From positions 2,240,001 to 2,304,000 of the forward strand of contig CAXXVS010000002.1 of assembly GCA_963674755.2 (NCBI GenBank): a stretch of 64,000 nucleotides of DNA. Direction: 5' to 3'. Below the pieces are notes generated by a model. The model was not told the origin of the DNA, searched no databases, and saw nothing but the letters and a program-made list of their open reading frames with translations. This document shows positions 12,056 through 44,670 of this stretch, in pieces. Made by a program: the position numbers and the translations under genes. Positions within the stretch are counted from its first letter, which is position 1, and each line of letters opens with the position of its first letter. The DNA is from Desulfobacterales bacterium (lineage in GTDB: Bacteria; Desulfobacterota; Desulfobacteria; Desulfobacterales; UBA5852).

Positions 12056-12088
12056 AAAGAAAGGGAGGCGCGTGACCTCCCTTTCTTT
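12056..12088 (-). terminator. Rho-independent terminator after the cytochrome-rhodanese operon
   Basis: AAAGAAAGGGAGG-n7-CCTCCCTTTCTTT perfect inverted repeat about 25 nt beyond the rhodanese stop. Confidence 0.75.
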
Positions 12089-12112: not shown

Positions 12113-12739
12113 TTACTTGCTGGCCACCTTGAGCTGGTCATCTTTTTCAGCGGCCGCCATCTTGTCCACGTCCGGCTTGTACATGAGGGCCGTGTCCATG
12201 CTGTAGGTCCAGGGCAGGCCCTCCCGCTGCCAGCCGCCGTCCCAGCGCTGGCCATAGAAGATGCTGGCCTTGTTTTTGTTCTTGCCGCCTTCGAAGCCGC
12301 CCATCAGGTTGAAAACCTTGTCTTCGGGCCAGCCGGCTTTGATGGCCTCGTTGCATCCCGCGCAGCTGCGGTTGCCGCTGCGGCAGAGGATGATCAGGGT
12401 GTCGGTCTGCGGGTTGAAACGCGCCAGCAGGTCCTTGCCGAAATCGGGGTTGTCCACCTCGACATAGCCCTTCTTGCCGACCTTGCTGGAGAGGAAACGG
12501 ATGGGGACGTTGTAGGCTCCCTCGGGGTGGCCCACGAACTGGTACTCCGCCCTGGTCCGGCAGTCCACCAGGAAGGTGTGCTCCGGGTTCTTCTTCAGCA
12601 TCTCAAAAGCATCGAGCGGGGTGACATCGCCGCCCAGGTGGGGTTTGTTGGCCTCGTAAGCAAAACCGGCCAGGGTCGGGGCGGCCACCATAACCAGCAT
12701 GGCCGCGACAAACGCTGTCAACCAAAATGCTTTTTTCAT
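12113..12739 (-). CDS. Periplasmic rhodanese-domain sulfurtransferase
   Basis: Signal peptide ending TLA; LVDCRT.EY..GHP, active-site loop CRSGNRS, GGFEG, GWQREGLPW; SD AAGGAG. Confidence 0.88.
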   Translation of the reverse strand: MKKAFWLTAFVAAMLVMVAAPTLAGFAYEANKPHLGGDVTPLDAFEMLKKNPEHTFLVDCRTRAEYQFVGHPEGAYNVPIRFLSSKVGKKGYVEVDNPDFGKDLLARFNPQTDTLIILCRSGNRSCAGCNEAIKAGWPEDKVFNLMGGFEGGKNKNKASIFYGQRWDGGWQREGLPWTYSMDTALMYKPDVDKMAAAEKDDQLKVASK

Positions 12740-12789
12740 AACGTATCTCCTTTCCCCTTTTTTAATGGATAGGGCCGGAAAACCGGCAG

Positions 12790-14139
12790 TTAGTCCGGGG
12801 GCCCTGTGTCGTTCGCCTGGATCGGCGGTATCATTTCGTCCGGAACCACCACGTCGGCGTTGGCCGCAACCTCCCGCTCATCCAAATCACGGATCCCCAG
12901 GAAAAGCGCGCGCCGGCCGTGGCAATTGTTGCAGGACTTGTTCTGGGGTGTGATGCGCCGGATGGAATGGGGCGCCGCGTCCGTCCAGGTGGGGTATTGC
13001 GCAAATTCTTTGAGGGCGCCCGGGCTGTAAAAGTCGAAGGTTCCCGGGACCACGGGCGGATGATGTTTGACCGTAAAGGTATAAGGACGCTCCGGTGTGG
13101 GATGAGGATTGCGGCCGATCTTGAAATCCAGCTCGGTTTTTTGGCACTTGAAATAGGCCATGCCTTTGGCATCGGCGCCCACATGACAGCTGTAGCACTG
13201 CTTGATGGGCTGGGCATGGCAGACCTGGCAGGCGGTTTTGCCGCGATGGATCCGGTGGGAAGGTATGGGCGCGTCTTCCGCGGCCGCCTCCGGATGGCAA
13301 GCCTCGCAGCGGGGTCGGGTGGCCGACGTGTGCCGGGTGGCGTCCTCACCGGCCGGCGCATGCATCTGGCCGGCTTGGTGGCAATCCATGCAGGTCATAT
13401 CCTCGTCCGCGAAATGGGTATCGGCAGCAAGATCCTTATTGAGTCCGGTGAATTCACCGAAAATGCGCCCGCCGTGGCAGCTGGCGCAGGTGGTCTCCAT
13501 GGGCGGTGTCTTGCGGAACTGGTGCTGCGCCAGAAAGCCGCCGTTCACGTAGTTCGGCCGGCTCACATGGCACTGGCCGCAGCTGGCGTGGCATTGGCTG
13601 CAGTGTCGCTCCCGGGCGGTTTCCATGGCGGCCTGCACCTTCTGGTCGGCCGGTCCCATGCGGCGGGCAATGGCGTTTCCGATGGGGGCAATCGTATAGT
13701 GGAGGCTTGCGGGGGCGGCGGCGCTGATGTCGGGATGACATTCACCGCAGGCGCCTTCCGGATCGGGAAAGGTGGGATCTTTGATCAGGCCCCGGTGGGC
13801 GGTCTGCCAATTCGGGTCTTGCGGGTTGCCGCCATGGCAGTCCACGCACGCAATCTGGCCGTGATCGCTATCGAGAAAGGCTTTGGCTACGTAAATCTTT
13901 TCGTAAGGCTCCAACGGAGCCAGAGGCCCCCCTCAGCCCTCGCCTTCGTTTTCAGCGGACACCTCGGGTTTCCCGCGGACCTTTTCCACCTCCCAGCCCA
14001 AACGGATGAGCTTCTTGACATCGGTATGGCACTGCACGCAGGTGCTGGCCGGCAACGGCTGACCGGCTGGCAGACATGGAAGGCCAAAAACACCCAGGGC
14101 GATGACGAACGCCCCCCTCAGATATCCGGCATGTTTCAT
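12790..14139 (-). CDS. Exported multiheme cytochrome c (11 CxxCH), probable selenoprotein with in-frame TGA at 13933-13935
   Basis: ORFs 13933..14169 and 12790..13914 are in one frame: SAENEGEG-TGA-GGPLAPLEPYEK. The upstream part has an SD (AAGGAG), signal peptide and one CxxCH; the downstream part has ten CxxCH and no signal peptide. 449 aa in total. Confidence 0.82.
13907..13921 (-). promoter_or_regulatory. Candidate bacterial SECIS hairpin
   Basis: GGCTCC-GTT-GGAGCC starts 11 nt after the TGA; the loop begins with G after 17 nt. Confidence 0.65.
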
Positions 14140-14402
14140 AGCGGCTCCTTGGCAATCGATTGGAAACAACGATACCAGATCAGGTCCGAATTTCCCGCTG
14201 AAGAAGAAGTAAATGCCGAAATGGGCAATATCCCATATATCAGGCCGATGTCAATGGGATAGTGCTCATATCAATTCCCTCTGGCGCAACCCACCGTTCA
14301 CGCCCCCCTGCCGGGCGAGACGTTGTCGATCCAACCACATGGAAAACGCACCGGAAGCCGACCAAAAGGCCGTCCGGTTTGTCACCGTCTACCCAACACG
14401 AT

Positions 14403-14666
14403 TCAATCCGAATCCATATAGCGCTCGCCCACCGGGACAGGCTCACCCGGACGCCAGGTCGAAAAATCCTTGGGCGCCACCAGGTCCTTGGCCCGGACAT
14501 GCTTGTCGATCCAGACGATGCGGGCATGGCATTCCCAAACCCGTTTGCCAAGTTGTCTCATCCGTTTGTTGAGCGCCTTTTCGGCCGCAAGCCGGCTTTT
14601 GTGGACGGAAAGGACTTCCTTCAAAGGGCGTTTGGAATCATTTTCATCATAGATCAACGCATACAT
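14403..14666 (-). CDS. Small hypothetical protein (87 aa)
   Basis: AGGAGG SD before ATG 14666; protein-like composition (MYALIYDE...VWECHARIVW). Confidence 0.7.
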   Translation of the reverse strand: MYALIYDENDSKRPLKEVLSVHKSRLAAEKALNKRMRQLGKRVWECHARIVWIDKHVRAKDLVAPKDFSTWRPGEPVPVGERYMDSD

Positions 14667-43848: not shown

Positions 43849-44670
43849 ATGAACAGAACGCACACGACCATATTGGCGGGGGGGATTCTCCTGCTATGGA
43901 TGGCGCCGATCGTGATCGGCTGTTCCCGGACCGGGGAGCGCGAGGCCGGCCGAAATACCCTAGAAGAGGAGTCTGCCATGAAACCTGAAAACCGGACCTT
44001 GTCATCGACCGACGTTCTGCCGCCCATCGACGCCGCCGCCCCGCAAACCTTTGATACGGCTACTTTTGGCCTGGGGTGATTCTGGGGCGTGGACGCCCAG
44101 TTCGGGGCGCTCGAAGGGGTCATCCGGACCCGTTCCGGCTATGCCGGCGGAACCACCCCCAACCCGGATTACGGCCACATCGGCGACCACACGGAAGCCG
44201 TTCAGGTGGACTACGACCCCCAACGGATCAGCTACGCGGAGTTGCTGGAAGTCTTCTGGCAAAGCCACCGGCCCACCAGCCCTCCCTGGAAACGACAGTA
44301 CCTGAATGCCGTTTTCTACCATAATGACCGGCAGCAGGAAGAAGCGCTGGCCTCGCAAGCGGCGGTCGAGGAACAACTGGGCCGCACCGTACAGACCGAA
44401 GTGATCCCCCTGCGGTCCTTCACCCGGGCCGAGGATTACCACCAGAAATACCTGCTCAAGCGTGAAGCCGATCTGCTGCGGGACCTGACTCGGGTCTATC
44501 CCCGCCACCGGGACCTGGTGGACTCCACGGCTGCGGCCCGTCTCAACGGCTATGCCGGTGGATACGGGAGCCCGGAACAGCTCGACCGGGAAATCGACCG
44601 CCTGGGACTCAGCCCGGCCGGCAAGGAAAAGTTGGAGATGCTGGTGCACCACAAGGGGCTTTTCAATTAG
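43849..44670 (+). CDS. msrA: Peptide-methionine (S)-S-oxide reductase, selenocysteine form (in-frame TGA 44077-44079), possible lipoprotein
   Basis: ATFGLG-TGA-FWG places TGA at the catalytic Cys of GCFWG; continues in frame to GYAGG, HTEAVQVDYDP, AEDYHQKY. Alternative start ATG 43978 (SD GAGGAG). Confidence 0.9.
44092..44112 (+). promoter_or_regulatory. Candidate bacterial SECIS hairpin
   Basis: GA-CGCCC-AGTTCG-GGGCG-c-TC; the loop starts after 19 nt and has G at its second position. Confidence 0.55.

Follow-up and report, generated by a model that had tools for sequence, protein, structure and literature searches.

The subject of this analysis is a minus-strand gene in the window, a 64,000-nt stretch of contig CAXXVS010000002.1 from a Desulfobacterales bacterium. 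The gene almost certainly makes a single exported selenocytochrome with 11 CxxCH heme motifs, in which an in-frame TGA at codon 69 is predicted to be read as selenocysteine (Sec). It represents a real, widespread and mis-annotated selenoprotein family of the multiheme kind, and is followed by a gene for a rhodanese. By analogy with known enzymes, we lean with modest confidence towards the view that the two proteins form a periplasmic polysulfide (sulfane sulfur) reductase, with Sec likely capping a heme that has no His ligand. Features are collected in Table 1; coordinates are positions within the window, and the cytochrome gene, the TGA and the rhodanese gene all lie on its minus strand.

A sequence-only reading of this region had proposed one frame with a single TGA and 11 CxxCH motifs, and translation confirmed it. 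The frame has 449 codons, its sole in-frame TGA lies in the context EGEG-U-GG, and one heme motif precedes the TGA while ten follow. By inspection, the ten-heme portion behind the TGA is without an export signal. The TGA is not an assembly error, because the letter is identical in contigs from four runs of three studies, one run possibly being the window's own source. No paralogue of the cytochrome was found in the host genome by tblastn.

The TGA is conserved throughout the family. The 11-heme gene occurs in 44 of 401 genomes sampled from the phylum. Each of the 46 matches covering the site has one TGA; another match, partial and at the end of a contig, stops short of it. The position was checked on DNA in 35 of 35 loci and in all 78 covered metagenome loci (of 80). 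Combined, the same-site TGA is present in 114 of 116 loci (106 of them distinct, the window's own included, and many of them kin), the remaining two being cut by contig ends. No TAA, TAG, sense codon or frame offset was found at the site in these 114 loci.

A hairpin resembling a selenocysteine insertion sequence (SECIS) begins 11 nt past the TGA, as the earlier reading had noted, with a 6-bp stem and a GUU loop. Taken as a single sequence it is modest, with z -2.1 on a 41-nt piece (8 of 200 shuffles were as good) and z -0.3 on longer pieces. Across relatives, its conservation is strong. The loop begins with G 17 nt past the TGA in 98 of the 106 distinct loci, and the mean folding energy at the site is -11.8 kcal/mol, against -4.9 kcal/mol in 1060 control windows. 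Synonymous codons within the hairpin are essentially fixed: Pro is CCG in 97/97 cases (0.28 elsewhere in the same genes), Leu is TTG in 94/94 (0.15), Ala is GCT in 59/60 (0.13) and Val is GTG in 60/63 (0.31). Two-sided changes occur in seven of the nine hairpin pairs, including an arm swap in some lineages which turns the peptide APLEP into EPLAP. The covariation score is above all slid controls and was reached by none of 500 shuffles, a test which relatedness inflates. Codon choice and covariation thus indicate that the hairpin is under selection as RNA, and not merely as protein.

The host was suspected of decoding Sec, and its genome holds every gene of the selA/selB/selC/selD set: selA, two selB, two Sec-type selD with a TGA of their own, and two tRNA-Sec genes. 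The duplicated tRNA-Sec genes are at G000:C1:791274-791365 and C2:1226048-1226145, and one abuts a selB. The window itself carries msrA (43978-44670, plus strand), a member of a known selenoprotein family, and its in-frame TGA at 44077 (GUFW) is real. Although selA is present in 41 of the 43 other carriers, its co-occurrence was discarded as support for Sec, being not discriminating when 97 of 101 genomes of the phylum sample have it. The conserved TGA, the covarying hairpin, the fixed codons, the relatives with Cys and the Sec genes together argue strongly for readthrough, and we are highly confident in predicting that codon 69 is read as Sec through SelB and the hairpin. Standard annotation hides the gene, as had been foreseen: among the best 120 database proteins, 111 have their first codon at +4 or +7 past the TGA, and none has it ahead of the TGA.

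The rhodanese open reading frame (ORF) starts 50 nt past the cytochrome stop. The description of its product as a rhodanese with the loop CRSGNR and a signal peptide held up, with PF00581 over its cut-off and an N-terminus that is signal-like by inspection; its relatives in the PDB are 2fsx and 8w14. Of the 116 loci, 16 were too short to judge and 100 have enough flank: a rhodanese comes directly downstream in 86 of these, three weak multi-domain matches included, stands at another place in the locus in eight, and is missing in six. The active-site Cys119 is invariant in all 53 aligned neighbour rhodaneses (53 of 61 intact), the N-termini of which look exported. In five proteins (L127, P0129, P0146, P0215 and P0260) the cytochrome is fused to rhodanese domains. 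The claimed link between selenocytochrome and exported rhodanese is therefore well founded, in a host genome of 6.7 Mb with 14 rhodanese matches. Among the 43 loci with 3 kb of sequence on the downstream side, 17 encode formate dehydrogenase (FdhA) there, and a sigma-54 regulator is nearby in 34 of the 116 loci. A b-type cytochrome gene stands beside nine loci and ResB/CcsB maturation genes beside seven, both with a 13-heme variant of the protein.

The arrangement of potential heme ligands bears on function. Eight free His residues (H93, 115, 147, 206, 242, 260, 295 and 391) are present in 33 of 33 aligned Sec rows, with H298 in 29/33 as aligned and H360 in 28/33. Eleven hemes against nine or ten free His would leave one or two hemes open, and beyond these His only Sec69 is both invariant and of a ligand type. 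In the OTR family, heme 4 has as its aligned counterpart the heme that stands behind a segment of Lys and NNF[C/U], a heme which we take to be the Lys-ligated catalytic heme of OTR. R225 and E229, both 33/33 in Sec rows, align with a conserved OTR segment behind heme IV that presumably has a pocket role, for which the literature search gave no source. R225 tracks Sec and Cys partly (33/33 Sec rows, 11/15 Cys rows, 8/20 others). The segment of Lys and NNF[C/U] has been lost in the 11-heme family and Sec lies on an added N-terminal loop, and because of this we infer that the Sec loop supplies the chalcogen to an OTR-like pocket. In OTR the catalytic heme is Lys-ligated (PMC8042395; here and below, papers cited by PMC number are represented by excerpts, unless the main text is named). 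Within the OTR family itself, the Cys of NNF[C/U] is TGA in seven of 20 loci (L141, L143, L147, L148, L153, L154 and L157). The host has two true TIGR04315 genes, and one TIGR04315 match with a TGA is at G000:C3:1218667-1219935.

The proposed mechanism borrows from MccSep, a polysulfide reductase that depends on Sec and heme: Sec attacks the substrate, the hemes reduce the adduct and an Arg binds the anion (PMC13510729). In the window's system, SelB would read the hairpin and Sec would be inserted at codon 69. The signal-like N-terminus and the CxxCH motifs suggest that the chain is then exported and 11 hemes attached. The nine or ten conserved free His would complete the same number of hemes, which would serve as a wire. 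At one site, most probably heme 4, no His would be available, and the Gly-rich loop would close over that heme and bring Sec to it, either as its ligand or close beside it. On the model of MccSep and of Sud/Psr, the rhodanese would take polysulfide on Cys119 and present it, the selenolate would attack the S-S bond, and electrons from the heme chain, supplied in some loci by formate dehydrogenase or b-type cytochrome, would release sulfide. Sec would exchange sulfane sulfur with the rhodanese, as the sequence-only reading had suggested. A bolder idea is that of an independently built selenium-heme sulfur reductase with a dedicated rhodanese, as common in the phylum as MccSep and present in genomes without it, in which Sec itself provides the sixth ligand to a c-type heme; this we hold to be doubtful. 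If it were true, many uncultured bacteria of sediments that are dsr-negative would have a hidden route of sulfur respiration. A natural His/Sec-ligated heme did not turn up in the literature search, and to our knowledge none has been described.

Several observations weigh against the polysulfide reductase. The first concerns the relatives, taken as the best 150 of 561 representatives: 41 are stop-free and span the N-terminus, 50 begin just past the site and 59 are other fragments. The alternation of Cys and TGA that the earlier reading had expected is borne out in part, by the TGA in 114 of 116 loci and by Cys at or beside the Sec column in 15 of the 41 stop-free relatives, which are distant; in the other 26 there is no Cys at the site, so that one of the results which the earlier reading had named as refuting is partly seen. 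In a quick tree, moreover, a group of Cys-less relatives is sister to the main Sec clade. These 26 do not undo Sec in the TGA-bearing members; in them the scaffold exists without a chalcogen at this position. In favour of an open heme, on the other hand, W, Y, H or M occupy the Sec column in ten of 22 ungapped Cys-less rows, against 5.6% in the same loop, which aligns poorly, and the Trp rows could be TGA read under another code. Since Sec rows fall in four groups of this tree, intermixed with Cys and other rows, Sec would have been gained or lost more than once.

The other adverse points concern single residues, the fold, the locus and the host. R225 is also conserved in ExtM, which is not known as an enzyme, and may only bind a heme propionate. 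The segment with Lys and NNF[C/U], found in 20 of 20 OTR loci, has no counterpart in the 11-heme family. The predicted structure (predicted local distance difference test score 80, predicted template-modelling score 0.78) matches OTR 1sp3 only modestly, with VIA Z 7.2 and a root-mean-square deviation of 5.3 over 264 aligned residues (next row 2.9), and the Foldseek match to OTR is modest too (E 0.015, template-modelling score 0.17). At E 0.001 Foldseek returned no match; MccSep was missing from its list, an absence which excludes nothing. This modest match agrees with the sequence result. Formate dehydrogenase neighbours are known from related loci. In the host there are also Psr/Phs-like molybdoenzymes, with scores below cut-off. 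One relative, L009:6001-7229, has a frame break past approximately residue 150, either an assembly error or a pseudogene. Finally, MccSep occurs in 43 of the 401 sampled genomes and in none of the 44 carriers, where 4.7 were expected; this mutual exclusion has p 0.005 per genome and speaks for the reductase, but it is not seen when counted by hand per family. Four families have both kinds, never in one genome, and since about four such families would be expected the exclusion is suggestive only.

Among the alternatives, the one that survives best, though we think it unlikely, is a non-catalytic electron wire of the ExtM type, in which Sec would be an axial ligand or cap that sets a heme potential and the rhodanese would serve another enzyme. 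ExtM is the closest named family by profile (probability 99.6%), distant relatives have His, Met, Tyr or Trp in place of Sec, and the shortfall of free His leaves a place for a Sec ligand. Against this, the unit is often cytochrome and rhodanese alone, here with a terminator-like hairpin and no other enzyme; the rhodanese is directly fused in the five proteins named above; and Sec is usually catalytic (PMC13188914).

An opposite or mixed direction, in which sulfide or persulfide is oxidised and sulfane sulfur passed to the rhodanese (in sulfide oxidation, disproportionation or detoxification), appears improbable. In TsdA and SoxAX, S-S bonds are indeed formed oxidatively at His/Cys hemes (PMC13510729), and sequence cannot give direction, but formate dehydrogenase and b-type cytochrome, where they are neighbours, suit a reductive chain, and both MccSep and OTR are reductases. 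We rate no higher the handling of selenium or tellurium oxyanions (selenite reduction or selenium capture), in which the rhodanese would carry selenium. It would agree with the place of ExtM and ExtH in a cluster tied to selenite/tellurite reduction (PMC5877670) and with the reduction of selenite by MccSep (PMC13510729). It is also in line with a LysR regulator close to a selenium-metabolism family (242 of 250 bits) near seven loci, a UshA-like selenoprotein near five, and a selA gene that adjoins the cytochrome gene in G001 and G177.

There seems a slim chance that the protein, in OTR-like fashion, reduces thiosulfate, tetrathionate or nitrogen oxides while the rhodanese removes the sulfane sulfur. 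The profile matches OTR, the fold does so modestly, and rhodaneses act on thiosulfate. On the other side stand the missing Lys segment, the two true TIGR04315 genes that the host already has, and the inactivity of MccSep on these substrates (PMC13510729). Least probable is that the TGA is a true stop, giving a peptide of 68 aa with one heme and, from a GTG or TTG four or seven codons on, a second protein with ten hemes, for while most database entries start at those codons and the G-rich stretch ahead of them could serve as a ribosome-binding site, the second protein would be without an export signal, the start-like codons sit within the covarying hairpin, the site is never TAA, TAG or out of frame, and 41 relatives are one continuous chain.

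We rejected a tie to sulfate reduction because dsrA is over cut-off in only 18 of the 44 carriers (most carriers being incomplete assemblies of 90% or more); with more than half of the carriers lacking dsrA, the family may account for the use of sulfur by sediment bacteria of which little is known. The first multiheme selenoenzyme has only just been shown to be the long-sought Geobacter sulfur reductase. The 11-heme family is unrelated to it, although the two are similarly common in the phylum sample (44 and 43 of 401 genomes, respectively). Gene callers have kept the 11-heme family out of sight by cutting its gene at the TGA, with loss of the signal peptide. The natural series of Sec, Cys, His, Met, Tyr and Trp at one position, predicted to be near a heme, offers a test of what selenium does there.

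No description of the family was found in the literature searched, although unseen supplements could list members. A 2026 table of 119 selenoprotein families has three with heme motifs, ExtKL, GSU2204 and the OTR family, the last including Sec members and listed as GenBank-annotated (PMC13188914); none of the three models matches the window's protein, P0001. In the excerpts, PMC13510729 deals with the five-heme MccSep only, PMC1914089 names only GSU2937-2936, and PMC12545173 and PMC13490349 have nothing on the 11-heme family. The words cytochrome and heme do not occur in the main texts of PMC12013277 and PMC13326102.

The promoter-like site upstream of the cytochrome gene and the U-tailed hairpin downstream of the rhodanese gene fit a two-gene unit, although consensus matches of this sigma-70-like kind number three in the region against 1.0 expected. 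A terminator had been claimed for the unit: the hairpin with its U-tract is there, but the terminator scan did not list it. Upstream, an ORF of 87 aa (14403-14666, minus strand) has no Pfam or NCBIfam match and is not a recurring neighbour.

Table 1. Features of the cytochrome-rhodanese region, in window coordinates.
Feature	Position	Strand	Basis or remark
11-heme cytochrome c gene (P0001), read through TGA, 449 aa	12790..14139	-	ATG 14139 to TAA 12790
In-frame TGA, predicted Sec69	13933..13935	-	
SECIS-like hairpin, loop G 17 nt past TGA	13907..13921	-	Folding and covariation
Approximate signal peptide, residues 1 to ~30	14050..14139	-	By inspection
Heme 1 motif, sole CxxCH ahead of TGA	14026..14040	-	Invariant in 33/33 aligned Sec rows
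Heme 4 motif C180-H184, predicted active-site heme (putative role)	13588..13602	-	Aligned with OTR-family heme
R225 to E229, behind heme 6, candidate pocket residues	13453..13467	-	Alignment conservation
Shine-Dalgarno-like AAGGAG upstream of cytochrome ATG	14145..14150	-	Sequence
Sigma-70-type promoter-like site TTGACA, 16 nt, TG-GATATT	14227..14254	-	10/12 consensus match only
Single-domain rhodanese, 208 aa, predicted exported	12113..12739	-	PF00581 50.5 bits, cut-off 22.2
Rhodanese active loop CRSGNR, Cys119	12368..12385	-	Cys invariant in neighbours
Intrinsic-terminator-like hairpin and U-tract	12056..12088	-	z -3.15

Variant forms of the cytochrome were also seen. The 13-heme variant (L065, L067, L070, L071, L108, L111, L112 and L115) is followed by the b-type cytochrome gene and has, in most, ResB/CcsB upstream; in seven loci an opposite-strand rhodanese lies 2-4.6 kb away. 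An eight-heme relative of about 350 aa (L120-L126) is without hemes 1-3 and the Sec loop, and P0189 fuses an eight-heme to a long form. P0122 joins the cytochrome to a membrane domain. In L053, L084 and L086 a Cys directly precedes Sec (GEC-U), a possible vicinal Cys-Sec pair; a downstream rhodanese was unseen in these three, with too little flank in L084. Lipoprotein-type members (L032, L033, L034 and L039) have CxxxCH at heme 11, and three are then followed by a weakly matching multi-domain sulfurtransferase. A search for longer forms returned one protein. Look-alikes of P0009 in the ESM Atlas carry automatic generic names only, and their lengths of 352-380 fit truncated forms; their commonest taxa, Chloroflexota, Thermodesulfobacteriota, Spirochaetota and Fidelibacterota, are a lead only.

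A second multiheme TGA family was encountered, with 7-8 CxxCH motifs in about 850 aa, a TGA behind the first heme (GK[F/Q/G]U-PP) and a conserved hairpin of its own. It is represented at L132:2564-5194 (minus strand) and in the host genome at G000:C3 near 1258035-1258643 (plus strand). Matches occur in 35 of 301 genomes, 22 of the 35 with one TGA, and the site was confirmed in seven loci. The L132 member has no NCBIfam family over cut-off, and the gene adjoins the 11-heme gene in G384, G111, G112 and G203. It is possibly another uncatalogued selenocytochrome.

Searched against NCBIfam and Pfam, P0001 and 14 relatives gave generic heme domains only, with no NCBIfam family near its cut-off, and by these comparisons the 11-heme family is not a member of MccSep, OTR or ExtM. 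NF049953 (GUxG, a 172-position model) was rejected as an identity, having no match in the host genome, where its control matched nowhere either. ExtH (NF040901) differs from the window's rhodanese, a 208-aa single domain as against approximately 430 aa, and the two do not match at E 0.1. Sud of Wolinella succinogenes is likewise a rhodanese. Its role as the periplasmic sulfur carrier that presents polysulfide to the reductase PsrABC (PMC2628731) is the likeness that matters here; Psr is, however, a molybdoenzyme and not a heme/Sec protein, and Sud is not among the PDB matches of the window's rhodanese. The GSU2204 family CXXCH (seleno)protein (NF041027), which completes the three heme-motif families of the 2026 table (PMC13188914), resembles the 11-heme family in kind, without a match to P0001 at E 0.1.

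The sequence-only reading had drawn a parallel with ExtKL, which is MccSep (GSU2937-2936, NF040886). The parallel stands in that both are multiheme selenoproteins with a rhodanese nearby, but there is no kinship, the profile relatives being ExtM and OTR. MccSep, too, is a c-type cytochrome with several hemes that is exported; it likewise has a Sec encoded by TGA and a SECIS-like hairpin, is split in annotation, belongs to the same phylum and has the gene for the rhodanese ExtH nearby, extH, extKL and extM lying in one cluster (PMC5877670). It has five hemes, a His/Cys active heme and its Sec near the C-terminus in an Ig-like domain, whereas Sec69 lies between hemes 1 and 2 and the 11-heme family has no invariant Cys outside CxxCH besides position 69. 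P0001 has no NF040886 match at E 0.1, and the profiles share 23 columns at a probability of 41.6%.

OTR (PDB 1sp3; TIGR04315) is the best PDB match by sequence and, at modest strength, by fold, hemes 3-9 of the 11-heme protein aligning with OTR hemes I-VII (probability 98.4%). It has eight hemes rather than 11, and P0001 gives no TIGR04315 match at E 0.1 (cut-off 375). To the OTR plan the 11-heme family adds two N-terminal hemes and heme 10, and it carries its Sec elsewhere in the chain. Compared with ExtM (GSU2935, NF040943), a 12-heme protein of about 600 aa represented by three partial rows, P0001 scores 31.9 bits against a cut-off of 800. ExtM has a short, Sec-less linker between hemes 1 and 2, has Met for H147 and H260, and belongs to a large cluster, whereas ExtKL is over cut-off in none of the 44 carriers of the 11-heme gene. 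Nevertheless it is the nearest of the named families: hemes 2-8 align over 186 columns with E 1.7e-23, and H115, H206, R225 and D240/H242 are in register.

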